Shown in pieces: positions 2,902 through 15,969 of a stretch of DNA of 15,969 nt (position 1 is the first letter of the stretch; each line of letters starts with the position of its first letter). This DNA comes from Tsukamurella soli (GTDB taxonomy: Bacteria > Actinomycetota > Actinomycetes > Mycobacteriales > Mycobacteriaceae): the NCBI RefSeq assembly GCF_039541155.1, contig NZ_BAABFR010000108.1:1-15969 (forward strand), given 5' to 3'. Under the pieces are notes generated by a model that was given only the letters and a program-made list of their open reading frames with translations, was not told the DNA's origin and made no database searches. Made by a program: the position numbers and the translations under genes.

Positions 2902-3876
2902 TCACGGGTGCGATGGGGCTTCTTCTTCGGGGCCATGCACGAGGTACTGCGCGTACGCAAGGACCTGCGGGTTCATCTCCGAGTACGGGGCTGGTCCTCG
3001 TTCAGAGAACGGTCCAGTTCTGAAGCAGTACGCGCCGCGTTTGCCCTCAAACCGCTCGACCAACTCGCACACGATTTCGCCATACGGGCGCATGACCTCA
3101 TCGGGGTACAGGGCATTGAGAACCTTCTCATTGAACTTAGGCATCTCATCTTTGATGCTGTCCAAGAGCTTGAACACAGAGAGGTCTTGGGGCATCCCTT
3201 TGAGCTGTTCGAGGTACCCGGCAATCTTCTCGTTGGGTTTCTTCGGGTTGAGGTTGCGAACCTGCGAGACGACCTCGTTATCGAGGTCGAGCACAATCAC
3301 GGGCTCTCGGCCCACTGCGAGACTCACCGACATCTTGATAGCCATCAAGTCGATGTGCACCAAGGCATTTCGCGCCTCGATCATCCAACGGTACGCCTCG
3401 CATTGGTCGTAGAATTCGTTCAGTAGATTCTTTACCGTCTGCTCAGTAGCCTTGTCGTCGCTGCGTGCTTCGGATATCCGCTCGGCCTGAGCTATCCTCT
3501 GGTCGCGATACACGAAGCACGAGTTAGCCGCATTCATGGTCTTCGTGGCCGCCGCAATCCGAATCGACGTGCCCCGCTCTGTCGTGCGAGGGATATGCTT
3601 CTTCTTCATCCCGTATTGGGCGATGCCGATTATGAAGTCGAGTAGGTCGAGGCACTCGTCGTTCACGAACAGCCACATGGGGTCCTCGGCAAAGCGGGTC
3701 AGCTCTATGTACGCGCCCATGTAGCGCTCGTATTCTGCATCCGAGAAGTCGGCGATGTGACGCATGATGGGTGGCACTCCTGCCTCGAAGTCTTGAAGCA
3801 GGATCCCGTGGTTTCCGTGATCCTTCATCGCAAGAGCGTATCGCCCGCCTCGTCCGAATGGCGACCCATTTACCAT
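2902..3876 (-). CDS. Hypothetical protein (324 aa) with a HEPN-like RNxxxH motif
   Basis: Long ORF with realistic amino-acid composition in a GC-depressed block. AGGA lies 8 nt upstream of ATG 3876. The central motif 'EARNALVH' (R169..H174, nt 3355-3372) matches R-x4-H. I recognise no other family. Confidence 0.6.
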   Translation of the reverse strand: MVNGSPFGRGGRYALAMKDHGNHGILLQDFEAGVPPIMRHIADFSDAEYERYMGAYIELTRFAEDPMWLFVNDECLDLLDFIIGIAQYGMKKKHIPRTTERGTSIRIAAATKTMNAANSCFVYRDQRIAQAERISEARSDDKATEQTVKNLLNEFYDQCEAYRWMIEARNALVHIDLMAIKMSVSLAVGREPVIVLDLDNEVVSQVRNLNPKKPNEKIAGYLEQLKGMPQDLSVFKLLDSIKDEMPKFNEKVLNALYPDEVMRPYGEIVCELVERFEGKRGAYCFRTGPFSERGPAPYSEMNPQVLAYAQYLVHGPEEEAPSHP

Positions 3877-4348
3877 CTGAGATGTCCTGTGGCGCAGTGT
3901 ATCGCTGCGTATGCGTACGACCTCCGGTGAGCGGTCGTTGGGCGCGGAGCACTACGCCTCGACCCCGGACGCCGGGGCAGGCACCTCGTCGTCAACCTGA
4001 CGTTCGAAGCTCACGATCCTCGTCTCCCGCATTACGATGCCGAGGTGGAGTTGGGAGTCTGTGACTGGACGATGGGTGGTGCACCTGCCTCGAGCCGCGT
4101 TCCGCGACGGCATCCAAGAGCCCGGGCACCGTCCCGACGACGGCGGGACCTTGGCATCATCCCCGGGCTATCGAATGGCACCACTACAACCCACGCGGAT
4201 GTCGGGGTACGACGGGCGTTCCGCCCCAGGACGGCAGGACGAAACTACGAGTTGCGATGCGCCGCGGCCCTGGCGACGATGCCCGCTCCCTCGACGGCTC
4301 AGCGTGCCGGCGTAGTCGAGTGACATGTCGTAGGGTCTCGCTAGTCTC

Positions 4349-5338
4349 ATGTGTATGGGATTGGGAGAGCTGACCGCGGAGTCCGTAAACGCAGCGATCG
4401 CCGAATATGACGAGCTGGGCGCGGACGCTTTCCTGTCCAAGTATGGGTATGGACCCGCGCCCGGGTACCTCATCCACTACGACGGCAAGCTCTACGATTC
4501 GAAGGCTATCGCGGGGGTGGCATACGGCTACATCCCCGGGCTCAACCCGCTCGGTTCCGCAGAGTTCAGCGGTGGCGAAGCGAGCGTCGCTCGTAAGCTG
4601 CGCCAGCTCGGATTCCGGGTGCCACCAACTCGGTCACCGGACTGGGTTCGAGATGAGGTCATTCTCGCCTGCGATCTGGTCGCTCAGAACGGCTGGAACT
4701 ACATGAGCGCCGACGATCCTCGTGTCGTCAAACTGTCCGGACTCTTGCAGCGGCTCCCGTTCCATCCCGTCGAGGTCCGCGGAGACAAGTTCCGCAACAC
4801 CAATGGTGTAGCTCGTAAGACGGTTGACATTGCCATGCATCACCCCGACTACCCCGGGAAGACTACGAAGAGTGGCGGGATCGACGAGGTCGTGCTGCAC
4901 GAGTTCCTTGACGATCCGACGGGTATGCACGCGATCGCCGAGGCTATGCGCCGGTCGATCGCAGACGACACCGTGATCGAGCAGTCGGCGGTACCTAGCG
5001 AGGACGAGGATGACGGTGCCCGGGAGGGCCGTCTCCTTCAACGTCGGCACTTTGTCCGCGAACGGGACAAGAAGCTGCGTCGCCGCAAGATCGCGGAGTT
5101 TCTTAAGGTCCACGACCGCGTCCATTGCCAAGCGTGCGGATTCGACTTCGAGGCGGTCTACGGCGGCCGCGGCCAGGGGTACATCGAGGTCCATCACACG
5201 TTGCCGCTACACGCTGCCGACGAGCGGCAGACCGAGCTGACTGACCTCGTGCTGCTGTGTGCCAACTGTCACCGGATCGTCCACAACAAATCGCCATGGC
5301 TGACGTTTGACGAGCTGCGTGCGCTCGCCGCACCATAG
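4349..5338 (+). CDS. HNH endonuclease, type IV (modification-dependent) restriction-like, ScoMcrA/COG3183-type
   Basis: The N-terminal 'AIAEYDELGADAFLSKYGYGPAPGYLIHYDGKLYDSKAIAGVAYGY' resembles the ScoMcrA-type head domain. The middle 'WVRDEVILACDLV...DKFRNTNGVARKTVDIAMHHPDYPGK' is the COG3183-type region. The C-terminal HNH is 'CQACGFDF...YIEVHHTLPL...LLCANCHRIVH'. Confidence 0.85.
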   Translation: MCMGLGELTAESVNAAIAEYDELGADAFLSKYGYGPAPGYLIHYDGKLYDSKAIAGVAYGYIPGLNPLGSAEFSGGEASVARKLRQLGFRVPPTRSPDWVRDEVILACDLVAQNGWNYMSADDPRVVKLSGLLQRLPFHPVEVRGDKFRNTNGVARKTVDIAMHHPDYPGKTTKSGGIDEVVLHEFLDDPTGMHAIAEAMRRSIADDTVIEQSAVPSEDEDDGAREGRLLQRRHFVRERDKKLRRRKIAEFLKVHDRVHCQACGFDFEAVYGGRGQGYIEVHHTLPLHAADERQTELTDLVLLCANCHRIVHNKSPWLTFDELRALAAP

Positions 5339-5397
5339 TGGATCTTTCTAAGGTCGCTCAGCTGTACGTGCGTTACTTCGGCGCTCTTACCGATGCT

Positions 5398-5415
5398 CGC
5401 ACCGGATAACCGCGC
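5398..5415. repeat. Left copy of flanking direct repeat CGCACCG(GAT)AACCGCGC
   Basis: Read directly. It matches 12547-12561 (CGCACCGAACCGCGC) except for a 3-nt GAT insertion. It lies 6 nt from the Cas1 stop codon. Confidence 0.45.
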
Positions 5416-5421
5416 GTCCCG

Positions 5422-6858
5422 TCAGTCACCGTCGTGGTCGAGTGCCCCATTCAGTTGGTTCCAGGTTCCGTCAGCGGTCCAGCGGTCGAGTCGTGCTTTG
5501 CAGGTCCAGCGGGAGACGCCGAGGGTTTTGGGGATCTGCGCCCAGGCGGTGCCGTGGTGTGTGACGCAGAGGATTCCGGCGAGGACGGTTCGGTCGTCGG
5601 CCCATGCGCGTCCTCCGCTGCCGCTTTTGGGGTTCGGTGGGATGAGAGGGCGAAGGCGCTGCCACATCTCATCGGTAACGATGTCGGCGACGGTGACCAG
5701 TCCATCGAGTCTTAGTCGGGCCTGCTGGATCGGCGTCGTCGTGGCGGGGTGCATGATCGTCTTGTTCCGTACCAGCCGTGGTGTCGTCCGGGTTTCGGCC
5801 CGTGCGGTGTTGGCGATCGCGTTGGCGATGTACTGGGTGTGCGGCGTGATCTGCTTCGCGTAGTGCGGCAGGTGTTCGGCGAGTTCGTGTGTCAGTGGCG
5901 GAACCAGCCGGCACTGGCCGTCTCGGCTCTCGTGCAGCAGTGAGGGCCAGCGTCGCTTGTTGCACGGTGTGTTGATCATTGTCAGGACGTGCCGGTCGAC
6001 GTGGGGACGGAGGATTTCGAGGAGGTCGACGGCGAGGGAGTCCCGGGCGGGTTCGTCGAAGTGGAGGAATCCAAGCGCCGGATCCAGCCCGATGGTGTGG
6101 CAGGCGAGCCGGCACTCGACTTCGGCGAGCCGGTACGAGTAGTTGAGCATCGCGTTGATCGGGTCGCTGGCGAAACGGGCCCGGCCGGACTTGCCGACTT
6201 TCGAGCTGCGGCCGTTGAAGCGCTGCCAGTGGTCGGGGATGCGTGGTAGGTCCGCGCGGAGGTACGGGAGCGCGACGGTACCGGTCCAGGCGTTCCAGTA
6301 GATTCTGCCGGCGTTCCCTTCGTAGCCGCGGGCCTCGGCGATCGTGTCGGCTGCGTCGACGGCCTCGATGAGGGCGCGGATCTGCTGCGCTGCTTGCGGG
6401 TCGGCGAGTTCGTGGTCGGCGATCTGGGCTTGTCCGTCGAGTTTGAGACCGAGGATGTGTTTGACGAGCGCGAGCCCGACGTGTTCGTTGGGTCCGCCGA
6501 TCCCGGCGAAGGCCTGCGCGCGGCGGAGGCGCGCGTTGTGGTCGGCGGGCGGGGACGAGGAGGTGATGAGGTCACCGTTGCGGTCGAGGTGCAGCAGGGT
6601 GATGCCGACGTCGGCGCACCAGGCGAACGCGTCCAGGGTGATGTAGCCCGAGCCGGAGAGGACGACGATCCGTTGCAGTGTCCGTTCGATGCGGGGGATG
6701 CGGCGTTCCCGGCGGTGGGAGCCGATGCCGTCGCTGATGGTGAGATGCCCGCGGTGGACGCTGATTCGGATGCCGTAGCCGTCGACGACGAGCACCCGCG
6801 GGTCGGTCGGGGTGCGGGTGTAGATGTCGCCGACGGGGGTGTCGAGGGTCGCGGTCAT
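5422..6858 (-). CDS. cas1: Cas1-family integrase (solo, casposase-like) with C-terminal DUF4096/IS5-type HTH
   Basis: 478 aa from ATG 6858. N-terminal beta domain: 'VLVVDGYGIRISVHRGHLTISDG' and 'RIVVLSGSGYITLDAFAWCADVGITLLHLDRNGDL'. Catalytic residues: E180 ('ARGYEGNAGRIYW'), H266 ('DPALGFLHFD'), D278/E281 ('DSLAVDLLEILRP'), plus 'DPINAMLNYSYRL'. C-terminal ~90 aa: 'VTDEMWQRLRPLIPP...GGRAWADDRTVLAGILCVTHHGTAWAQIPKTLGVSRWTCKARLDRWTADGTW', an IS5-transposase N-terminal HTH pattern. The ATG overlaps the upstream stop (ATGA at 6855-6858). The track's 800-aa ORF is an upstream out-of-frame extension. Confidence 0.85.
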   Translation of the reverse strand: MTATLDTPVGDIYTRTPTDPRVLVVDGYGIRISVHRGHLTISDGIGSHRRERRIPRIERTLQRIVVLSGSGYITLDAFAWCADVGITLLHLDRNGDLITSSSPPADHNARLRRAQAFAGIGGPNEHVGLALVKHILGLKLDGQAQIADHELADPQAAQQIRALIEAVDAADTIAEARGYEGNAGRIYWNAWTGTVALPYLRADLPRIPDHWQRFNGRSSKVGKSGRARFASDPINAMLNYSYRLAEVECRLACHTIGLDPALGFLHFDEPARDSLAVDLLEILRPHVDRHVLTMINTPCNKRRWPSLLHESRDGQCRLVPPLTHELAEHLPHYAKQITPHTQYIANAIANTARAETRTTPRLVRNKTIMHPATTTPIQQARLRLDGLVTVADIVTDEMWQRLRPLIPPNPKSGSGGRAWADDRTVLAGILCVTHHGTAWAQIPKTLGVSRWTCKARLDRWTADGTWNQLNGALDHDGD

Positions 6859-7730
6859 CGATGTGTCTCTTCTGGTCGCTGGTCGAGGTGGAGCCCGAGG
6901 ATGGTGAGGACGTCGGTGCAGCAACGGTCGACCATCAGTTGGGTATTCGGTTGGAGGTACATCCCGTCGCTCGACGGTGTCGCCGTGCGGGCGAATTCGG
7001 GTTGCAGTGCAATGTATTCGGCGAAGCTCAGCAGATGTTGTTGCCGCGCATCGATGAAGCGTTGGTCGTGATGGCCGGCGAGGATGTCGTCCCTGTTGTC
7101 GATCAGCCAGTCGACGGCGACGGAACGTGCGGTGATCAGCCTCAGTACCGACTCGACGGTCAGCGGCGCTCCGGGCGCGCCGAGGTACCGCGGCGCGTGG
7201 TCGGGTTCGAAGACGGCGCGGATCGCCTCCTCCACACGGTGAGGGTCGAAGCGACCCGTGTAGCTGGTCTCGGCCAGCAGGTCGAGGAGGTGTGCGCGGG
7301 CCGCCTTGCCCGCGCCGGGGTGGTCGAGCTGGCCGAGCACTGCGCGGGCGCAGTCGCGTGCGTACTTCTTGTTGACGCGCGGTCCGCGGTCGCCGGGGTC
7401 GCCGAGCCAGGTGAGGAACGCTTTGCGGGCTTGCCGGGTCGGGACGTAGTCGTCGCCCCAATACAGCCAGATGCAGACGACGACACGCGCGAGCGCGGGG
7501 ATGCGCGTGGTCTGGGTGCGTTTGTCGAGGAGTGTCACGAACAGCAGGCGTTGATTGGCGGTGTAGAGCGCGGGGCGGGAGCCGTGGCCCTTGCCGGCGG
7601 GTTGCAGGGTGGGTGAGTCGAGCAGTCCCCGTTCGGTCCAGTCCCGGACCAGCCGCGCGGTGGGGTGATGGCCTGCGGTGCGCCCGTCGGTGAGCAGGTC
7701 GTCGATGGTGCCGGGCCGGTCGAAGGTCAC
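6855..7730 (-). CDS. Hypothetical protein with N-terminal MerR-like HTH, translationally coupled to cas1
   Basis: 291 aa from GTG 7730. 'TARLVRDWTERGLLDSP...GKGHGSRPALYTANQRLLF' resembles a MerR-type HTH. The remainder is unrecognised. The stop overlaps the Cas1 start. Confidence 0.6.
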   Translation of the reverse strand: MTFDRPGTIDDLLTDGRTAGHHPTARLVRDWTERGLLDSPTLQPAGKGHGSRPALYTANQRLLFVTLLDKRTQTTRIPALARVVVCIWLYWGDDYVPTRQARKAFLTWLGDPGDRGPRVNKKYARDCARAVLGQLDHPGAGKAARAHLLDLLAETSYTGRFDPHRVEEAIRAVFEPDHAPRYLGAPGAPLTVESVLRLITARSVAVDWLIDNRDDILAGHHDQRFIDARQQHLLSFAEYIALQPEFARTATPSSDGMYLQPNTQLMVDRCCTDVLTILGLHLDQRPEETHR

Positions 7731-7801
7731 TTATAGAGATTACATCGATTTGGTGCTCACTGAGGGGTGACCGACGGGATCCTGCCTGGGAATATCGGTG
7801 C
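7731..7801. promoter_or_regulatory. 71-bp divergent intergenic region, candidate back-to-back (possibly leaderless) promoters
   Basis: This is the most AT-rich stretch of the module. On the minus strand TAATCT (TANNNT) ends 6 nt before GTG 7730. On the plus strand GAATAT ends 6 nt before ATG 7802. There is no Shine-Dalgarno on either side. Confidence 0.35.
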
Positions 7802-8044
7802 ATGGACATCACACTATTGACCAAAGGTCAGGTCGCACGCCGGCTCGGGCTCTCCCCGGAACGGGTGCGGCAACTCTCCGAATCCGGGGCGCTCGCATGC
7901 CAGCACACACCGCTCGGCAGACTCTACGATCCCGACGAGGTCGACCGCTACGCGGCGACTCGCGCGGCTGACACCCGGCGCTCACACCGCTCGGTCGAGC
8001 GTCGGGATTCGTCCTCGCGCGACGGCGGTGCTGACGGTGAGTGA
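7802..8044 (+). CDS. Excisionase-family/MerR-like HTH DNA-binding protein
   Basis: 'LLTKGQVARRLGLSPERVRQLSESGALACQHTPLGRLYDPDEVDRY' matches the Xis-type HTH pattern. It is the first gene of the plus-strand operon. Confidence 0.7.
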   Translation: MDITLLTKGQVARRLGLSPERVRQLSESGALACQHTPLGRLYDPDEVDRYAATRAADTRRSHRSVERRDSSSRDGGADGE

Positions 8045-8303
8045 CGAGATGATCCGTGCCGTGACGACGCGGTCGGTCGAGTCCATTCCCGTGAGGGAGC
8101 TGACCGAGGCCGAGTTGTCGCTTGTCGGGAGTCATTGGAACGCCGTCGGGCGGTATCTGCGGACCGGTGACACGACACGGCTGAACCGGTTCGTCGGCGT
8201 CCGGGTCGGTGGTCGTGAGTTGGAGACACGGACCGTCGCACTGGACTATTACGGCAACATCGGGGAGCTCGAGTTCGAGTCGATCTATGACGACATCCGG
8301 TGA
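8028..8303 (+). CDS. Small hypothetical protein (84-91 aa)
   Basis: The ORF bridges the Xis-like and HNH genes, and its stop overlaps the next start (GTGA at 8300-8303). The start is either GTG 8028 or ATG 8049. No domain recognised. Confidence 0.5.
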   Translation: MLTVSDEMIRAVTTRSVESIPVRELTEAELSLVGSHWNAVGRYLRTGDTTRLNRFVGVRVGGRELETRTVALDYYGNIGELEFESIYDDIR

Positions 8304-9085
8304 GCCGGGGAGTGTGCGCCGCGTGCGGGCGGATCGGTCGTATCGAGGCCCATCACCTCGCGGGACGCGTCAATGATCCGACGCTCACGGTTCCTGTCTG
8401 CCGGGACTGCCATCGCGGTTACCTGACACCGTGGCAGTACGCCGACGGCGTCGGACTCCGCCACGATGGAGTCGACAACGAGGTCGATACGCTGCGTGCC
8501 CTCGTGCATGGGATGTTCCGCTTCCTCGCGCTGATGTGCCAGCGCACCGGAGGCGACCCGGCGCAGCTCGCTGACGACTGCATCCTGACGGCGCGGGGGT
8601 TCTCGTCCCTGCTGGATGCGGTGGGGCCACCCGACCGGCAAGGTCGGTGGTCGCCGGACCCACGCAACGCCGATCCTGTTGCGGGACCGGTGATCCCCGC
8701 CGGCGGATCAGCCGCCGAGCGCCTGCACGACCTGGCGACCAGCTTCCTCACGGCGACCGAGCCGGTCGCCGGCGTCGACCCGCTCCGCGTGGTGCTCGTC
8801 GACATCGTCGCCGACCCCGAGCGGTACCTGGACGCCTGGGAGGAGTTCGTCGCCGACCCCGATCGATACACGCAGATGTGCGCCACCGTCGGCGAGATAG
8901 CCGAGTGGAGTCACAACGCCACGCTCGGTCTCCTCGACCTCGCCGACCCCCACAGGCGGCCGGCGACCGGCGCCGGGTCCAGAACCGAACTCGGGCAGGG
9001 ACTCGCGGATGCGGGCTCCAAATTGCTAGACCTGCACCACGCCGTGATAGCCCATCATGCGGAAGAACCGAGGGCAGTGCGATGA
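8300..9085 (+). CDS. HNH-finger protein with an unrecognised C-terminal domain
   Basis: The N-terminal 40 aa 'CAACGRIGRIEAHHLAGRVNDPTLTVPVCRDCH' has CxxC...HH...N...CxxCH, an HNH/His-Me zinc finger. It is overlap-coupled to both neighbours (GTGA 8300-8303, ATGA 9082-9085). Confidence 0.7.
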   Translation: MSRGVCAACGRIGRIEAHHLAGRVNDPTLTVPVCRDCHRGYLTPWQYADGVGLRHDGVDNEVDTLRALVHGMFRFLALMCQRTGGDPAQLADDCILTARGFSSLLDAVGPPDRQGRWSPDPRNADPVAGPVIPAGGSAAERLHDLATSFLTATEPVAGVDPLRVVLVDIVADPERYLDAWEEFVADPDRYTQMCATVGEIAEWSHNATLGLLDLADPHRRPATGAGSRTELGQGLADAGSKLLDLHHAVIAHHAEEPRAVR

Positions 9086-11274
9086 ACGATGGCGACCGCG
9101 ACCTCCTGCCTGTCGCGGTGCGGGCCTGGACCGACGCACCCCGCGCCACCCGCAGGGCGCAGCGCAGCGAACCGATTCAACACGTCCTCGTGATCGACAC
9201 CGAGACCACCACCGACGAAGCGCAAGCCCTCAACTTCGGATGCTTCCGCTACTGCCACATCGACGGCGACGGGCGCGTGGTCACCGTCGCCGAGGGCCTG
9301 TTCTACGCCGACGACCTGCCCGAACGGCACCCCGACGGACACGCCGTCCTGCGCTCCTACGCCGCGCAGCAGTCCGCCGACGTCGACATGAAATACACTG
9401 GCGGATCGGTTGATTGGCGACTGAACTTGATGCCGCTGTCGGTGTTCGTCCGCGACTGGCTGCGGCTGGCGTACGAGCCGCGGCGCGGACGGGCGTGGGG
9501 ACCTGCCACGGTGGTGATGTTCAACGCACCGTTCGACCTCTCCCGCCTCGCCGGCAACGTCAGCGACGCCCGCGGCACCGGGAAGGCGCACGTGTTCGCC
9601 GGCGGATTCTCCCTCGCGCCGTGGGTCGACGCCGATGGACACCCCGCTGGCTGGTTCCCGAGACTGCGGGTCAAGTCGATCGACTCGAAACGCGCCCTCA
9701 TCGGCTTCTCCCAAATCGATCCCGAAAAGAAGATCAGTACAGGCGATTTCGTCGACCTCCGGACCGTGGCTTTCGCGTTGACCGGAAACAGTCACAGCCT
9801 GGCCACCGCATGCGAGACCTTCCGTGTCGAGCACGGCAAGACCGCGACCTCCGAGCACGGCCTCATCACACCCGAGTACATCCGATACTGCCGCGACGAC
9901 GTACGTGCCACCACAGAGTTGTTCGAGAATACCAGCGCGGAGTACGCACGGCACCCGATCGCTTTGCCGGTCAGCAAAGCGTTCTCGCCGGCCTCCATCG
10001 CCAAGGCCTACCTACGGGCGATGGGCATCACCCCGATCCTCGAACGCCACCCAAACGTCACCAATCAGGCTCTCGGGTACGCGATGTCGGCGTACTACGG
10101 CGGGCGGGCCGAAGCCCACATCCGCAACACCCCGGTACCGGTGGTCGTCTGCGACTTCACCAGCATGTACCCCACCGTCGACGTCCTGATGAACCTGTGG
10201 GGGCTGCTCACCCACGAGGACACCGTCACCGAGGACGCCACCGACGACTTTCGAGCGCTGCTGGATTCGGTGACGCTGGACGGCTGCTTCCGCCCCGACC
10301 TGTGGCCTCAGCTCGTCGGTATCGCGCAGATCGTCCCCGACGGTGACGTGCTTCCCGTCCGCGCCGCCTACGGTGACACCCCAGGATGGAACATCGGTGT
10401 CAACCACCTGACCAGCGACCATCCACTCTGGTATACGCTGCCTGATATCCTCGCCTCGACATTGCTCACCGGCAAGCCACCGCGCGTCCTGCGAGCGGTG
10501 CGGTTCACCTCCTCCCGCAACCTCTTGCACGGCCTCACCGAGGTGCGGCTGCGTGGCGAGGTCCCTGTCGATCCCGCGACGGATGACTTCTTCCGCACCG
10601 TCGTCGAGGAACGCCAACGCGTCAAGACCGCTGGCCAAGGCCACCCGGACAACTGTCCGTGCCAGGAGTGCTCGCTCGCCCCGTTCCTCAAGGTCCTCGC
10701 GAACGCCGGAAGTTACGGAATCTTCGGGGAGATGAACCGCCACGAACAGTCGAAGCCGATGACCGTGACCGTGTACGGGGCCTTCGAGTCACCGTGGGAG
10801 ACGACGACATCTGCCCCCGAGCTGCCGGGTGAGTACTGCTTTCCACCGATCGCTGCCTGCATCACCGGGGCTGCCCGGCTGATGCTCGCCTTGCTCGAAC
10901 GATGCGTCACCGACCTCGGCGGAACCTGGGCGTTCTGCGACACCGACAGCATGGCGATCGTCGCCGACGAGACCGGTTCACTGGTCCCGTGTGCCGGCGG
11001 ACCGCACCTTACCGACGACGGCCGCCCCGCGGTCCGCGCCCTCACCCCGCATCAGGTCGAAGCCATCCGTCGTCGATTCGACACCCTCAACCCCTACGAC
11101 CCTGTGGCGGTTCGCGACATCCTCAAACGCGAATACGACGGATACTGCGTCGCGATCTCCGCCAAGCGGTACGCCCTCTACCACCTCGACGATTCCGGAC
11201 ACGCGGTGCCGGATCGGGTCATCGATCTGATCGGCGAGGACGTCGACGCCGACACGTGGCCCGGCACGGCATGA
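9082..11274 (+). CDS. polB: Family B DNA polymerase with 3'-5' exonuclease domain (730 aa)
   Basis: ExoI 'VIDTET' (DTE 9196-9204). ExoII 'MFNAPFDL' (9523-9537). ExoIII 'YCRDD' (9886-9900). Motif A 'DFTSMYPT' (10153-10176). Motif B 'KVLANAGSYG' (10690-10719). Motif C 'CDTDS' (10936-10950). KxY 'AKRYALY' (KRY 11164-11172). The start at ATG 9082 is chosen for its ATGA overlap with the HNH gene. The track's 8647 start adds an Arg/Pro-rich stretch out of frame with the HNH gene. Confidence 0.9.
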   Translation: MNDGDRDLLPVAVRAWTDAPRATRRAQRSEPIQHVLVIDTETTTDEAQALNFGCFRYCHIDGDGRVVTVAEGLFYADDLPERHPDGHAVLRSYAAQQSADVDMKYTGGSVDWRLNLMPLSVFVRDWLRLAYEPRRGRAWGPATVVMFNAPFDLSRLAGNVSDARGTGKAHVFAGGFSLAPWVDADGHPAGWFPRLRVKSIDSKRALIGFSQIDPEKKISTGDFVDLRTVAFALTGNSHSLATACETFRVEHGKTATSEHGLITPEYIRYCRDDVRATTELFENTSAEYARHPIALPVSKAFSPASIAKAYLRAMGITPILERHPNVTNQALGYAMSAYYGGRAEAHIRNTPVPVVVCDFTSMYPTVDVLMNLWGLLTHEDTVTEDATDDFRALLDSVTLDGCFRPDLWPQLVGIAQIVPDGDVLPVRAAYGDTPGWNIGVNHLTSDHPLWYTLPDILASTLLTGKPPRVLRAVRFTSSRNLLHGLTEVRLRGEVPVDPATDDFFRTVVEERQRVKTAGQGHPDNCPCQECSLAPFLKVLANAGSYGIFGEMNRHEQSKPMTVTVYGAFESPWETTTSAPELPGEYCFPPIAACITGAARLMLALLERCVTDLGGTWAFCDTDSMAIVADETGSLVPCAGGPHLTDDGRPAVRALTPHQVEAIRRRFDTLNPYDPVAVRDILKREYDGYCVAISAKRYALYHLDDSGHAVPDRVIDLIGEDVDADTWPGTA

Positions 11275-11277
11275 CCC

Positions 11278-12522
11278 GTGATCGACAAGAACTCCGAGCA
11301 CGGGCTCGGGCACCTGCTCAACCCCACCGACCCCGAATCCGACGACCGAGACTGGATACGCCACCTGTGGACCTTCATCGTCGCGACCGTGATCGGCGCC
11401 GACCGGGTCGAGCCGGACTGGCTCGACCGACCAGCGCTCGGACGGATCACCATCTCCTCACCGACCATGCTGCAGCCGCTCGCAACGTGGAACGAGACAC
11501 GGCCATACGCTCAGCAGATCAAGCCGTACAACTTCCTGCTCGTCGCGCACGCCGCACCGCTCGGACACCCACCCGGTGCCGACCCCGAGAAGTTCACCCT
11601 CATCGCCCCGTACAGCGCCGACGCCACGCTGTGGGCCGGGTTGATGTGGCGCAACCTCCACGACCCCCACGGCCCGACCTACAGAATCACCACCGAGGAC
11701 TGGGATCACACCCTCGGCGGCCAACCGGCAGACCTCGTCGTCGTCACCTCCTACCGCGACGTCCTGCACCGATACATGCGCCACCCTGAAGCGAAATCCG
11801 CAGGCCCAGAGGGAAACCCATGCAGACACGACACCACCGGGCTCCTCGGACGACGGCAAGTCCACCTCACGAGCGGCAACCTGCACCACATCGGGAAAGA
11901 AGCCAACAAGATCGACGACGTCCAGGCCGGAACCGTCACCGCGCTCGACGACGTCGTCAACGACTACGGAACCCCGCTCGACATCCTGGCGGCTCTGGTG
12001 TGGCCGTGCATCGCCACGCTATCGAACGTCGACATCGCTGCACGATTCGACGTCGCGGAACGGACCGTCGCGCGCTGGCGCCGGAAGGATGCGACTCCCC
12101 GCGACCGACACGTGCAAGCGCTGATCATGCTCGCCGTCGACGTGGCACTCGACCACCTGAACCGGGCCGCGATCGACCACCCATGGTGCGACCTGCCGCT
12201 CGCAGCGGCGCGCCGCGACTGGCGAACGGTACTCGCGTTCCACCTCGACCGCCACGAACCAGAACAACCACGATGCCCCTGCGGCTGCGGAGCCCCGCTC
12301 CGCCCACGCCAGAACTACGCGACAGACGCCTGCCGGAAACGCATCGTACGCCGATCCGCCCCGCCGACACCCGGCGCGACGGCGGCACCCCGACCACAGA
12401 CCCAACTGACACCGGCGAGTCGTCCCCACGGGGCACAAGTAGGGACAGCGGCACCGATAGACAGTTTGGACATGTCACGTACTCGCGCAGCGGACCCGTC
12501 CCGATGTTTGGTGGGGTGGTAG
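11278..12522 (+). CDS. Hypothetical protein in the same frame as PolB (possible polymerase C-terminal continuation) with an HTH-like segment and C-terminal Cys cluster
   Basis: It begins 3 nt after the PolB TGA, in the identical frame. The N-terminus is 'IDKNSEHGLGHLLNPTDPESDDRDWIRHLW'. There is an HTH-like 'LSNVDIAARFDVAERTVARWRRK' and a 'CPCGCGAPLRPRQNYATDACRKR' zinc-ribbon-like tail. Confidence 0.55.
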   Translation: MIDKNSEHGLGHLLNPTDPESDDRDWIRHLWTFIVATVIGADRVEPDWLDRPALGRITISSPTMLQPLATWNETRPYAQQIKPYNFLLVAHAAPLGHPPGADPEKFTLIAPYSADATLWAGLMWRNLHDPHGPTYRITTEDWDHTLGGQPADLVVVTSYRDVLHRYMRHPEAKSAGPEGNPCRHDTTGLLGRRQVHLTSGNLHHIGKEANKIDDVQAGTVTALDDVVNDYGTPLDILAALVWPCIATLSNVDIAARFDVAERTVARWRRKDATPRDRHVQALIMLAVDVALDHLNRAAIDHPWCDLPLAAARRDWRTVLAFHLDRHEPEQPRCPCGCGAPLRPRQNYATDACRKRIVRRSAPPTPGATAAPRPQTQLTPASRPHGAQVGTAAPIDSLDMSRTRAADPSRCLVGW

Positions 12523-12546
12523 TGGTATCGGTGGTTTCGGCCGACG

Positions 12547-12561
12547 CGCACCGAACCGCGC
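12547..12561. repeat. Right copy of flanking direct repeat CGCACCGAACCGCGC
   Basis: Read directly. This is the partner of 5398-5415. It lies 24 nt after the stop at 12522. Confidence 0.45.
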
Positions 12562-12585
12562 CCGCACCACGTATCATGATCCAGC

Positions 12586-12990
12586 GTGAAGAAGTGGATC
12601 ACTGCGGTCGCCGCAAGTGGAATCTGTGTATCGCTCACTCCCTCTGTGGCACAGGCGGATCCGCCGCCCATGACGCCTGCGTATGCGTACGACTGCGGGC
12701 ACAAGTCGATCCGACCGGCTGAGATCGTCATCACCTGCGCGGACGCAAACAATGAGGTGGTTGACATCGATTGGTCGGTGTGGAGCACGGAAACGGCGCT
12801 AGGCCGTGGCGTGTGGACGATCAACCCATGTATTCCCTACTGCGCCGTGGTTCCCTCGTCGAAATGGAAACGCACGCCGGTCTCTGTGGTACTCACAGAA
12901 CGGCAGGACGACGGGTTTATGCTGATGGTGCTCACCGACGGGTCAGGCAGGAACACGGTAGTGAACCTTCGCGATATCGCGCAGGCGTGA
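12586..12990 (+). CDS. Small secreted protein (Sec signal peptide, four Cys)
   Basis: 'MKKWITAVAASGICVSLTPSVAQA|DPPP' has n/h/c regions with an AQA cleavage motif. The mature part contains four cysteines. Start is GTG. No domain recognised. Confidence 0.7.
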   Translation: MKKWITAVAASGICVSLTPSVAQADPPPMTPAYAYDCGHKSIRPAEIVITCADANNEVVDIDWSVWSTETALGRGVWTINPCIPYCAVVPSSKWKRTPVSVVLTERQDDGFMLMVLTDGSGRNTVVNLRDIAQA

Positions 12991-13262
12991 AATACGCCGG
13001 CGACGACAGCGACCACAAGTGCTCCGGGGGGCACCGACGCGGATCGGCTCGCCAAGGTGGCCGCTGACAAACTTGGCCGGCGGCAAGAGGCGCCTGGGAT
13101 CTGTCTCCACTGAGCCTGCGTTTCCGGGCACAGGCCCGGAGAGTCGCGTGGGCCGCCGTAGTGGGCCTTCAAGGGCAACGTTATGGTGTCGTCGGCAGGT
13201 TCGACCGGGCAGGTGGGCGCCCGCTGAGCCGTTTGAGATGCTTGGGTATTCTGCCTCTGAAG

Positions 13263-13549: not shown

Positions 13550-14584
13550 CTACTCCGTCGACTCTCCGACTGGATCGATCTTTAATCGGCGAATACTATT
13601 CCGACACTTCTCAGGGAGTTCGATCAGGCGGATGTCTATAGTCCTGCGATCGGGTGAGAGTACCAGAACTTGCATCGTCCCCTCTCGCTCGCCCAACGTC
13701 ACGAGGGTTCCAGCTAGCGCCTCACCTGTGGCGATGTTGGACACCGCGTAGTACTCGGTCGGTGCACCGCGGTGCCACTGGAGATTTCCGTTTATCGTGA
13801 TAGTTTCGATGAGGACGAGCGAGGAATTCGAGCGCATATACACCCCGTCCGCGCGGACGTCGATCGTGTGAGTGTGCGGCCATCCGGGACCACATGCTTC
13901 TGCCGAATTTGAAGGTTCGTGGAAGGGGATTGGGAAGGTTCGCAGGACGGTCTGAGCGGGTTCGAGCTGGAACAATATCTGACTTGACCGCAGAAGTAGA
14001 TCCCTAAAATACTCTTCAACGGAAGCGACCCGACTGTTGCCCTGCCCCTGGTTGTCGAATAACGCCGTGGACCAGTCATACGACACTTGCTGTTGAGTGA
14101 CGATCGTGATATTCCAGCCTATCCAGCGAAGAAGGAACTGACTCGACGGTAAGCATTCTTGCGGCGTGCCCTTCATCGTCAGGATCGGGAACTGCTCACT
14201 GAGGTCCTTCGTCCATGGCTCAAGTCGATATAGGGTGACACCGTGTGCTTCCGCCTTCCTTTCGGCACCGTTCGTGAATCCGGAAGTCGATACGATAGCC
14301 CGATCCGTGATCGAATCCATGTCGGCGAATTTCATGCAGAGTTGTTCGACTGTGGTAACATCGATTGGCTGCCCCTCGTGCTTTACTTCGTAGGCCTTGA
14401 AAGCGTGGTTCCCACTGACAGGGTCAGTAACGGTTACTGTGACATCCACATCACGCTCCTTGCCGGCTGCGGGATCGTTTACCATATCCCCAACAACGAT
14501 GTCAATCGCCGCAGGATTCCATCGCGCGGCGCAAAGGCCAACGAGGTATTGGACGGTCATTTCAGTGAGTGGCAACTTCGGCAC
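13550..14584 (-). CDS. Mrr-like PD-(D/E)xK restriction-endonuclease-fold protein with an unknown ~200-aa C-terminal domain
   Basis: 'KERDVDVTVTV...AFKAYEVKHEGQPIDVTTVEQL...DRAIVSTSGFTNGAERKAEAHGVTLYRL' has D...ExK (EVK at 14381-14389) followed by the Mrr_cat-like 'vsTsgFT..A'. The block is low-GC. The start is GTG 14584 or ATG 14560. Confidence 0.75.
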   Translation of the reverse strand: MPKLPLTEMTVQYLVGLCAARWNPAAIDIVVGDMVNDPAAGKERDVDVTVTVTDPVSGNHAFKAYEVKHEGQPIDVTTVEQLCMKFADMDSITDRAIVSTSGFTNGAERKAEAHGVTLYRLEPWTKDLSEQFPILTMKGTPQECLPSSQFLLRWIGWNITIVTQQQVSYDWSTALFDNQGQGNSRVASVEEYFRDLLLRSSQILFQLEPAQTVLRTFPIPFHEPSNSAEACGPGWPHTHTIDVRADGVYMRSNSSLVLIETITINGNLQWHRGAPTEYYAVSNIATGEALAGTLVTLGEREGTMQVLVLSPDRRTIDIRLIELPEKCRNSIRRLKIDPVGESTE

Positions 14585-14796: not shown

Positions 14797-15969
14797 CTAT
14801 GCATTCAAACCCTCCACGGCATCGATGACCTCCCGGACCGACTGATACCGTCTTGAAGGTTCGGACTGCGAACACTTCTGAACGATCTTGCCGACAGGAT
14901 CTGTTCCAGGTAGGAGGTTATGCACCCCCTTGAAGATGTACGAAAGAACGACCCCTACCACCCAGATGTCGTTCACAGCTGTGAAATCTTTGAAGTCGCC
15001 TCCCAGGGCCGGGTCGATATATGTACCTCGCACCTCATCTCCGGTCTTAGTGAACCCTGAATCCACTTCTTTTGCGAGGCCGAAATCTGAGAGCTTGACA
15101 ACCGCAGCTTCGTCATCATACGCTTTAAGTAGGATGTTCTTGAGGCTTAGGTCTCGATGAAATATATGTTTGTAGTGCAGGTAGTTCAGTCCGTAAAGAA
15201 ACTGCAAGGTCAGTCTCTTTCTCGCGCCGAAGTCGAATGCGGGTTGATTGTTTCTGCGCTTGATGTACTGTTCTAAGGTGTACTCACAGTATTCCATCGT
15301 GTACGAGTAGTTGGACTCATCAAATGAGTATACTTCAACTATGTATGGAAACCTCAGGCCCTTCATGATTTCGTACTCGCGGAGGAATCTCGAACGCTCT
15401 TCTTCGGCAGAGTTCCGCCTGAGTTTCTTCCGTGCCACCGGGAAACCGTAGGTGGGGTCAATGTATCTGTGGACGTGCGCGAATGCGCCTTCTCCCACCA
15501 GCGTTAGGCGCGCACTCGGTGCCGCTGCAACGACCACAGCCTGTTCTCCTAGCCCGATCACAGCCTCGTACTGATCGATCGTTATTGGAGTGAAACCGGC
15601 AGGGATTGGGCTCCCGCCCCACTGTGTCAGCCACTCCTCTGAGTCTCGGAGTACTCGTTGGTACTCATTTGCGAGGACAAGTGTCTGCCCAGACTGCTCA
15701 AGCGCCAAAGTTAGTTTCCGAATCTCATCCTTAAGGGCGAGCAAGTTGCGACTGTTGTCGGCGTTGAAATGCCCCTCGGCCCCGTTTCGCGACTTGTAGT
15801 TCATAAAATCGAACTCTTTGTCAAGCTCTGCGTGAATACTTGCAAATGCTCTCGCCAGCCCTTGATCAAATTCAGAGTACAGATCCAAATACGCGTCATC
15901 TATGGGCTTGGTCTCGTACTCTCGCAAGAGCCGGGTAAGTCGCTTCTGGGCGGGAGAGTCTTCGGGCAC
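14797..15969 (-). CDS. Ser/Thr protein kinase with an unrecognised ~150-aa N-terminal region (probably 5'-truncated by the window edge)
   Basis: Gly-loop 'LVGEGAFAHV', VAxK-like 'PVARKK', 'REYEIMKGL', HRD 'FHRDLSLKNILL' (HRD at 15151-15159), DFG 'LSDFGLAK' (15079-15087), 'GTYIDPAL'. The ORF is open to position 15969, so the true start may lie outside the window. The block is low-GC. Confidence 0.85.
   Translation of the reverse strand: MPEDSPAQKRLTRLLREYETKPIDDAYLDLYSEFDQGLARAFASIHAELDKEFDFMNYKSRNGAEGHFNADNSRNLLALKDEIRKLTLALEQSGQTLVLANEYQRVLRDSEEWLTQWGGSPIPAGFTPITIDQYEAVIGLGEQAVVVAAAPSARLTLVGEGAFAHVHRYIDPTYGFPVARKKLRRNSAEEERSRFLREYEIMKGLRFPYIVEVYSFDESNYSYTMEYCEYTLEQYIKRRNNQPAFDFGARKRLTLQFLYGLNYLHYKHIFHRDLSLKNILLKAYDDEAAVVKLSDFGLAKEVDSGFTKTGDEVRGTYIDPALGGDFKDFTAVNDIWVVGVVLSYIFKGVHNLLPGTDPVGKIVQKCSQSEPSRRYQSVREVIDAVEGLNA

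Follow-up and report, generated by a model that had tools for sequence, protein, structure and literature searches.

An in-frame TGA divides a casposon family B DNA polymerase gene of Tsukamurella soli at a length-variable linker, possibly as a tolerated split

The closest described relatives of the gene considered here are the family B DNA polymerases (PolBs) of casposons. The gene lies in a 15,969-nucleotide stretch of DNA from Tsukamurella soli (contig NZ_BAABFR010000108.1 of assembly GCF_039541155.1; this whole stretch is hereafter the window), where a single in-frame TGA separates a polymerase open reading frame (ORF) from a second ORF directly downstream. Casposon polymerases of the 'PolB_CDTDS' cluster, which bears the signature CDTDS, include that of the Aciduliprofundum casposon (PMC7544198); family 2 casposon PolBs carry a C-terminal helix-turn-helix (HTH), and the bacterial casposons make up family 3 (PMC4046053). 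The T. soli locus is like both families, as described for Aciduliprofundum boonei and Streptomyces albulus StrAlb-C1 (PMC7544198; PMC4046053), in its CDTDS motif and in having a Cas1-solo gene and an HNH gene as neighbours. With family 2 it has the C-terminal HTH in common, and with family 3 a bacterial host. It differs from both in that its polB is cut by an in-frame stop and in that no terminal inverted repeats (TIRs) were found in the window. The family to which the element belongs (2578 proteins, and 421 loci in GTDB species representatives) is also far larger than the handful of bacterial casposons in the cited papers.

Split PolBs offer a second comparison. Those known from nature, in T4-like phages (gp43A/gp43B), in Methanothermobacter thermautotrophicus and in phage RM378, are encoded by two ORFs whose products must assemble, and in some T4-like phages the two ORFs lie 2 bp apart (PMC3061061). 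These enzymes are phage or cellular replicases, and their splits fall at the tip of the fingers, within the palm or where the N domain joins the palm, whereas the T. soli polymerase belongs to a casposon and has its cut past the KxY strand, where the catalytic core gives way to a C-terminal module. An engineered split of the Pfu polymerase is alike as a bicistronic polB with the second half made by coupled reinitiation at the stop, and its fragments regain full activity (PMC3061061). The Pfu junction is a laboratory-made AUGA overlap in the fingers domain, in contrast to the TGA-CCC-GTG of T. soli, which lies in a post-palm linker.

Two further groups resemble the T. soli enzyme more distantly. 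The protein-primed polymerases typified by phi29 (PF03175) give the best structural match to the predicted model of P0002, an intact homologue (Foldseek, E = 1.6e-10 for phi29 polymerase, followed by many other family B polymerases), and a beta-rich insertion lies between motifs B and C at the TPR2 position. The phi29 enzyme is about half the size, however, and its 45-aa thumb is no counterpart of the C-terminal module of ~360-410 aa found here; protein-primed systems also combine a terminal protein with a linear genome bearing TIRs, and in the T. soli window neither a recognised terminal-protein gene nor TIRs were found. The Pfam search of the neighbouring ORFs that returned no terminal-protein domain is a weak negative, since terminal proteins are poorly conserved. 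The piPolBs of pipolins (PMC5695915) are similar as divergent bacterial PolBs on integrated self-replicating elements, often among defence genes. Membership of that group was considered and rejected by the published criteria (PMC5695915): piPolBs have SxTTDG and KTRG, and pipolins encode tyrosine integrases, whereas the T. soli element has CDTDS, KRY and Cas1.

Inspection of the junction reveals two ORFs in a single frame. The polymerase ORF runs from ATG 9082 to TGA 11272-11274 (730 codons) and the downstream ORF from GTG 11278 to TAG 12520-12522 (414 aa), both on the + strand ((11278-9082) mod 3 = 0), and just the TGA and one CCC codon (11275-11277) stand between them. A sequence-only reading of this DNA had described the same arrangement, and its account of the junction proved accurate throughout: the polymerase ends 33 codons past the KxY motif (K695-R696-Y697); motif C lies 73-75 aa before KRY, in line with the long DTD-to-KxY spacing of ~75 aa that it had named; and conceptual readthrough yields a product of 1146 aa, to which the downstream part adds the HTH-like segment and the Cys cluster that it had foreseen. 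The features of the gene are the following.

9082-11274, + strand: N-module, 730 aa, with Exo I at 9190-9210, Exo II at 9523-9549 and Exo III at 9886-9903
10153-10176, 10690-10719, 10933-10953 and 11164-11172, + strand: polymerase motifs A, B, C (FCDTDSM) and KRY of the N-module, located by motif inspection
11173-11286, + strand: variable acidic linker from the KRY strand to the K-x-SEHGLG block, 40 aa in the window
11272-11274, + strand: in-frame TGA, next base C, 6 codons before the conserved K736
11278-11280, + strand: GTG, candidate reinitiation codon 3 nt past the stop, encoding the Val of a conserved hydrophobic V/I-I/L-x-K-x-SEHGLG strand
11278-12522, + strand: C-module ORF, 414 aa, with the SEHGLG block at 11293-11310 and an alpha/beta domain over residues ~6-190
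11974-12165, + strand: Xre-like HTH of the C-module, from weak Foldseek matches
12274-12342, + strand: Cys4 zinc-ribbon-like cluster CPCGCG...C of the C-module, from the sequence
12301-12519, + strand: non-conserved, disordered tail of the C-module, from the structure model and codon statistics

By comparison with relatives, the two ORFs belong to a single gene. When the conceptual readthrough product served as query, 2578 related proteins were returned. Besides the window's own 730-aa product, the 119 best matches are mostly ~1000-1100 aa long, with coverage of up to 95% of the query and identity of up to ~60%, and the top matches span 85-95% of the readthrough product, running straight across the junction. 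Genomes were scanned at one per GTDB species; 80 of the 421 loci found were kept for junction and synteny counts, and in all 80 the N and C parts lie in a single frame with no stop at the junction (three had been flagged solely because the tblastn tail overran the natural stop). Because 25 columns 3' of the stop are invariant in an alignment of 16 sequences that includes the window, the two ORFs belong together and are not neighbours by chance. In this alignment, conservation within the C-terminal third is highest at the first block of the downstream ORF, K-x-SEHGLGHLLNP..DP...RDW; a resemblance to the family B segment 'KG.E..RRDW' that had been proposed for the same place was not reproduced. 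That is to say, two adjacent ORFs jointly, and only jointly, cover a PolB that is fused in relatives, and by these alignments ORFs 9082-11274 and 11278-12522 are one gene, the polB of a casposon family B polymerase. The sequence-only reading had asked whether orthologues are fused or split at this codon, and those in the 80 loci and among the top protein matches are fused across it. Its proposal that the downstream ORF is the missing C-terminal part of the polymerase is borne out by homologues that continue across the stop, and the opposite arrangement that it had envisaged, with two genes in different frames and a complete enzyme within 9082-11274, is not seen among the nearest relatives.

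The catalytic half is well preserved. The N-module retains 163 of 167 columns conserved at >=90%, and D620, T621 and D622 of motif C are invariant in 113 sequences. The Pfam family PF03175 (DNA_pol_B_2) matches the polymerase at 29.9 bits against a cut-off of 25.8, a match confined to residues 261-366. Neither the N-module nor the family profile found a match when searched by sequence against the PDB, and no NCBIfam family matched either half. Judged by its motifs and gene context, the gene is a CDTDS-type family B polymerase of a Cas1 casposon, a setting absent from the sequence-only reading.

The position of the stop within the protein was examined with AlphaFold models of P0002 and of the window's C-module ORF alone. 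The P0002 model has a mean predicted local distance difference test score (pLDDT) of 92.1 and a predicted template modelling score (pTM) of 0.92, and its residues 710-724, which correspond to the linker, are the sole internal segment with pLDDT <50. Across the polymerase family, KRY and x-EHGLG are 12-42 aa apart (median 16), and the 40-aa linker of the window represents an acidic insert common only to its nearest relatives. In the model and the alignments, the TGA thus cuts the polymerase within a disordered, length-variable linker past the KxY strand of the palm, just ahead of the invariant K-x-SEHGLG. By our estimate, ~3% of random nonsense mutations or base-call errors would fall within these ~40 codons, a figure that speaks for a tolerated split rather than for a dead gene or an artefact.

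The part downstream of the stop is likewise free of decay by the measures applied. The ratio of C-part to N-part identity to homologues is 0.831, compared with 0.827 +/- 0.038 in intact proteins (rank 63 of 112), and the C-module retains 41 of 42 columns conserved at >=90%. The G+C content at third codon positions (GC3) is 0.83 in the conserved part of the C-module versus 0.84 in the N-part, while that of the tail is 0.63. When the C-module ORF was modelled alone, pLDDT was >=89 over residues 10-190.

Related polymerases are split at the same place. When the C-module ORF alone was searched against 1.84 billion representative proteins, the matches formed two groups: full-length proteins, and about ten proteins that start with Met or Val 6-18 residues before SEHGLG. 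At one metagenomic locus (L084), the N ORF ends ...SAKRYSLFNR-TGA and is followed by a 13-nt spacer, AGGAAGGTyAGGC, containing the Shine-Dalgarno (SD)-like AGGAAGG, and then by GTG-ELRKNSEHGLG in another frame. A locus from a different metagenome (L087) has the same junction at 99.1% identity. The two differ by 7 synonymous and 1 non-synonymous changes in the N half and by 4 and 0 in the C half; with 11 of 12 coding differences synonymous (p ~2e-6 to 2e-5), both halves were under purifying selection after the split. In a further locus, L086, the N ORF is intact at 701 aa and overlaps a C ORF of 327 aa by GTGA, and in L083 and one JGI contig the N and C ORFs lie in different frames and meet in the linker. 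The layout closest to that of the window is found in L089, where an in-frame TAG is followed by 9 nt and GTG-IRKRSEHGLG. A search with the short N-tail of L089 gave only two fragments, one of which, P0374 (75% identical), also ends in the linker. The clade with the in-frame TAG split, represented by L089 (positions 3-302) and P0374, has ADTDS in place of CDTDS as its motif C.

Proteins that begin in the linker are numerous around these examples. Among 108 relatives of one stand-alone C protein, 37 begin <=20 aa before the motif, and at least 16 clusters begin V/M-IRKRSEHGLG at 59-85% mutual identity, several of them on contigs of 12-57 kb. A metagenome scan with the stand-alone C alignment, whose patterns are generic, gave mainly fused genes, and L089 was the one V/M-IRKR contig among the matches listed. 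Fused genes account for 66 of the 84 loci examined (80 from the scan, among the matches listed, and 4 others). Two candidates, P0188 and P0252, were discounted as linker-start proteins, their genes being shattered into several ORFs on their contigs (assembly errors or pseudogenes). Taken together, these gene sequences show the linker to be a recurrent split point in the family, with at least one lineage keeping both halves under selection, and the option of a genuinely split polymerase, one of four in the sequence-only reading, all of them reasonable, gains unexpected support from the other members cut at this linker.

Breaks at other positions were also observed. A second recurrent split lies ~20 aa before the KRY strand, where several clusters of 315-352 aa (P0272-P0277) start M...ELLCYAIAAKRY, and the N ORF of L107 (1238-1400) ends ...NFDANEE-TAA just upstream of this second point. 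In addition, L099 (~5141), L102 (~5150) and L109 (~978) have a common frame break ~40 residues past SEHGLG (...WQEI..D.L......*), which may represent a frameshift that they share, another site of splitting or a pseudogene lineage.

We favour the interpretation, to which we give about an even chance, that the T. soli polB is a tolerated split whose C-module is made by reinitiation at GTG 11278, so that the gene would specify a functional two-piece polymerase. According to this proposal, a single lineage-specific TGA cuts the casposon polB within the disordered acidic linker; the ribosome would terminate there and reinitiate 3 nt downstream at GTG 11278, in the same style as the termination-reinitiation coupling proposed for the three upstream genes of the operon, which are joined by GTGA and ATGA overlaps and have no SD sequences. 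Minor readthrough at the leaky UGA-C context may also occur. The reinitiated C-module would have the predicted N-terminus (f)M/V-IDKNSEHGLGHLLNPTDPESDDR, and an active polymerase would arise when this 414-aa product associates non-covalently with the 730-aa catalytic module. Termination-reinitiation is supported where stop and start lie -8 to +10 nt apart (PMC10666635), and the Pfu polymerase split by this means kept full activity (PMC3061061). A wider proposal, which we advance tentatively and rate somewhat short of even, is that casposon CDTDS polymerases are repeatedly broken at the post-KxY linker and that selection maintains the break; entire clades, chiefly from soil metagenomes, would then have a catalytic N-subunit and a DNA-binding C-subunit, and termination-reinitiation, possibly with some readthrough, would set the product ratio in the versions with an in-frame stop (TGA in T. 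soli and TAG in the clade of L089).

Several observations weigh against these proposals. Sequence inspection found no SD-like sequence upstream of GTG 11278, whereas L084 has one, and the residue encoded by this GTG is hydrophobic in fused relatives too, so the codon need not have evolved as a start. The nearest relatives (P0002-P0006, 54-60% identity) are all fused. The protein collection searched contains no relative closer than 60% identity, so the sequences do not demonstrate that the T. soli split has persisted, and they would look the same had a null mutation arisen very recently. As for the wider family, DNA has been seen for one member only of the V/M-IRKR clade (L089), 2 of the first ~10 linker-start proteins sit on contigs with shattered genes, and another, P0150, has a fused relative at >=90% identity.

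Much of this would also fit a recent inactivating nonsense mutation, the rival that survives best, though we consider it unlikely. The polymerase would be truncated past the palm, the C ORF would not be usefully translated and the element would be unable to replicate itself, and the C-half would look intact only for want of time to decay. In agreement with such a mutation, T. soli alone shows the split among the 80 genome loci, the nearest relatives are all fused and GTG 11278 has no SD before it. Interrupted copies do exist in the family (P0150, with its fused relative, and the shattered L085 and L088), and the exact 17-nt repeat that flanks the element suggests a young insertion, which makes a young mutation plausible. 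Set against this is the placement of the stop: a random stop would land in the linker with a chance of ~3%, and here it falls at the split site of other members, 3 nt before a usable GTG. One lineage split at the same linker shows selection on both halves, and no element gene has any other lesion.

A sequencing or assembly error, by which the true codon would be a sense codon such as TGG in an ordinary fused polB of 1146 codons, is improbable in our judgement. The TGA was inspected in one assembly (GCA_042666795.1, a single 5.65-Mb contig), and an error would accord with the fused state as the family norm and with a C-half without decay; the lesion is a substitution and not an indel, however, the neighbouring genes across 22 kb are unfragmented, the ~3% chance of landing in the linker applies here as well, and short-read assemblies of independent samples contain real splits at the linker, in frame or out of frame.

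Among bacterial stop contexts, UGA with a following C is the leakiest. Programmed recoding, in which UGA would be read through under stimulation or as selenocysteine to give the fused 1146-aa enzyme as main product and the 730-aa form as a regulated by-product, in the manner of viral opal-readthrough polymerases, is nevertheless very improbable: both ORFs share the frame of the TGA, and L089 independently has a TAG, likewise in frame, in this linker, but the RNA past the stop has no stable structure (fold z = -0.10; 85 of 200 shuffles fold equally well) that could serve as an element resembling a selenocysteine insertion sequence (SECIS) or as a stimulator, the stop position varies among relatives and is frequently missing from them, the neighbouring genes ordinarily end in TGA, and the splits of L083, L084 and L086 are out of frame, so that a fused product is not required for function. 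The idea of a SECIS or readthrough stimulator was accordingly rejected on the grounds of the missing structure and of a position within a variable, often deleted loop.

Whether the C-module of the polymerase is its thumb is a separate matter. Family B thumbs begin within ~30 residues after KxY, and the sequence-only reading had suggested that the downstream ORF may encode the missing thumb. As said above, the ORF is the C-terminal part of the polymerase; its identification as a thumb found no match by Foldseek against PDB and BFVD, which gave just non-significant matches of Xre-type HTHs to residues ~233-296, and an hhalign comparison of the polymerase family with phi29 polymerase aligned motifs B-C alone, at 8% probability. 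A weak HTH was placed by Pfam at residues 249-270 of the C-ORF (best E = 0.003). The high pTM of the P0002 model suggests that the C-module packs against the core, and from its position after KxY we infer that it may play the role of a thumb. The last ~70 codons of the C-ORF have no codon periodicity (GC3 0.63, and 0.70 at second positions), are unconserved and are disordered in the model. Because homologues end right after the CPCGCG...C cluster, this tail (12301-12519) is probably read-on beyond the ancestral end.

The surroundings of polB identify the element. Its genes and candidate boundaries are as follows.

3905-3921, no strand: left copy of an exact 17-nt direct repeat, CTGCGTATGCGTACGAC, a candidate target-site duplication and left boundary
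4349-5338, + strand: HNH endonuclease gene, a typical casposon accessory, 327 aa with ScoMcrA_N and HNH (PF01844, E = 1.5e-8)
5422-6858, - strand: Cas1-solo casposase, 478 aa, from gene call and Pfam
6855-7730, - strand: 291-aa gene upstream of cas1, from gene call, with a 4-nt overlap with cas1 and homologues in 4 related loci
7802-8044, + strand: small HTH protein (MerR/HTH_17-like), first gene of the polB operon (PF13411, 24.5 bits, above cut-off)
8028-8303, + strand: conserved 91-aa gene with a GTGA overlap with the next gene; homologues directly upstream of polB in most related loci
8300-9085, + strand: 261-aa gene whose stop overlaps the polB ATG (ATGA)
12677-12693, no strand: right-hand copy of the 17-nt repeat and candidate for the right boundary

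The minus-strand Cas1 protein matches PF01867 at E = 6e-44 and has a C-terminal HTH (DUF4096, PF13340, E = 2e-19). In ~68 of the 80 related loci, the strand opposite the polymerase gene carries a Cas1 homologue 2-5 kb upstream of it, and the 22-kb locus holds neither a CRISPR array nor other cas genes. Pfam gave no match for the 291-aa gene. A mechanical 800-aa ORF at 5422-7824 (- strand) is misleading, being a long-ORF artefact of GC-rich DNA that merges cas1 with the 291-aa gene in its separate frame.

Between the two flanks, nothing but the 17-nt repeat matches significantly (E = 0.004), and its copies lie 8772 nt apart, enclosing HNH, cas1 and polB. At the left repeat the G+C content rises from ~0.52-0.58 to 0.62-0.71, the element being richer in G+C than its flanks. 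No inverted match >13 nt was found between 3700-4400 and 12400-13100, while the relative L035 has 140-nt arms of 92% complementarity around cas1 and polB. With a Cas1-solo gene and a family B polymerase in the same element, the ~8.8-kb segment of Tsukamurella soli DNA at 3905-12693 (HNH, cas1, four small ORFs and polB) is, by its gene content, a casposon. No other lesion was found in any of its genes.

Further observations concern the ends and neighbours of the element. A 134-aa ORF (12586-12990) with a signal-peptide-like N-terminus spans the right repeat, and just within the right end, at 12620-12676, are scrambled partial copies of sequence upstream of the left repeat (GTGTATCGCT, CTGTGGCNCAG). 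Defence-type genes flank the casposon on both sides: to the left are GmrSD_N (487-1635), a HEPN RiboL-PSP protein (1632-2297) and a short integrase fragment (2251-2580, - strand), and to the right a Mrr_cat-like protein (13550-14584, - strand) and a Ser/Thr kinase (14797-15969, - strand). The Cas1 plus CDTDS-PolB elements at the 421 loci of GTDB representatives occur mostly in Acidobacteriota, Actinomycetota, Gemmatimonadota, Chloroflexota and Eremiobacterota.

Were the stop a fresh null mutation or an error, the finding would be an ordinary one, and its interest lies more in the recurrent, selected break point than in the single stop codon. Annotation pipelines list the two halves as unrelated hypothetical proteins, by which both the gene and the element are hidden. 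Casposons are regarded as ancestors of the CRISPR adaptation machinery, and the literature cited here describes the integrase activity of the casposase and translocation in vivo, with no biochemistry of a casposon polymerase reported there. If the two-subunit reading is true, the architecture would be one not described for casposon polymerases in that literature, it would add a new split site to the few naturally split family B polymerases, and it would provide a natural domain boundary at which casposon polymerases may be expressed or engineered. The T. soli element would be a cultivable example, and Tsukamurella soli itself a cultivable actinomycete in which casposon replication could be studied.

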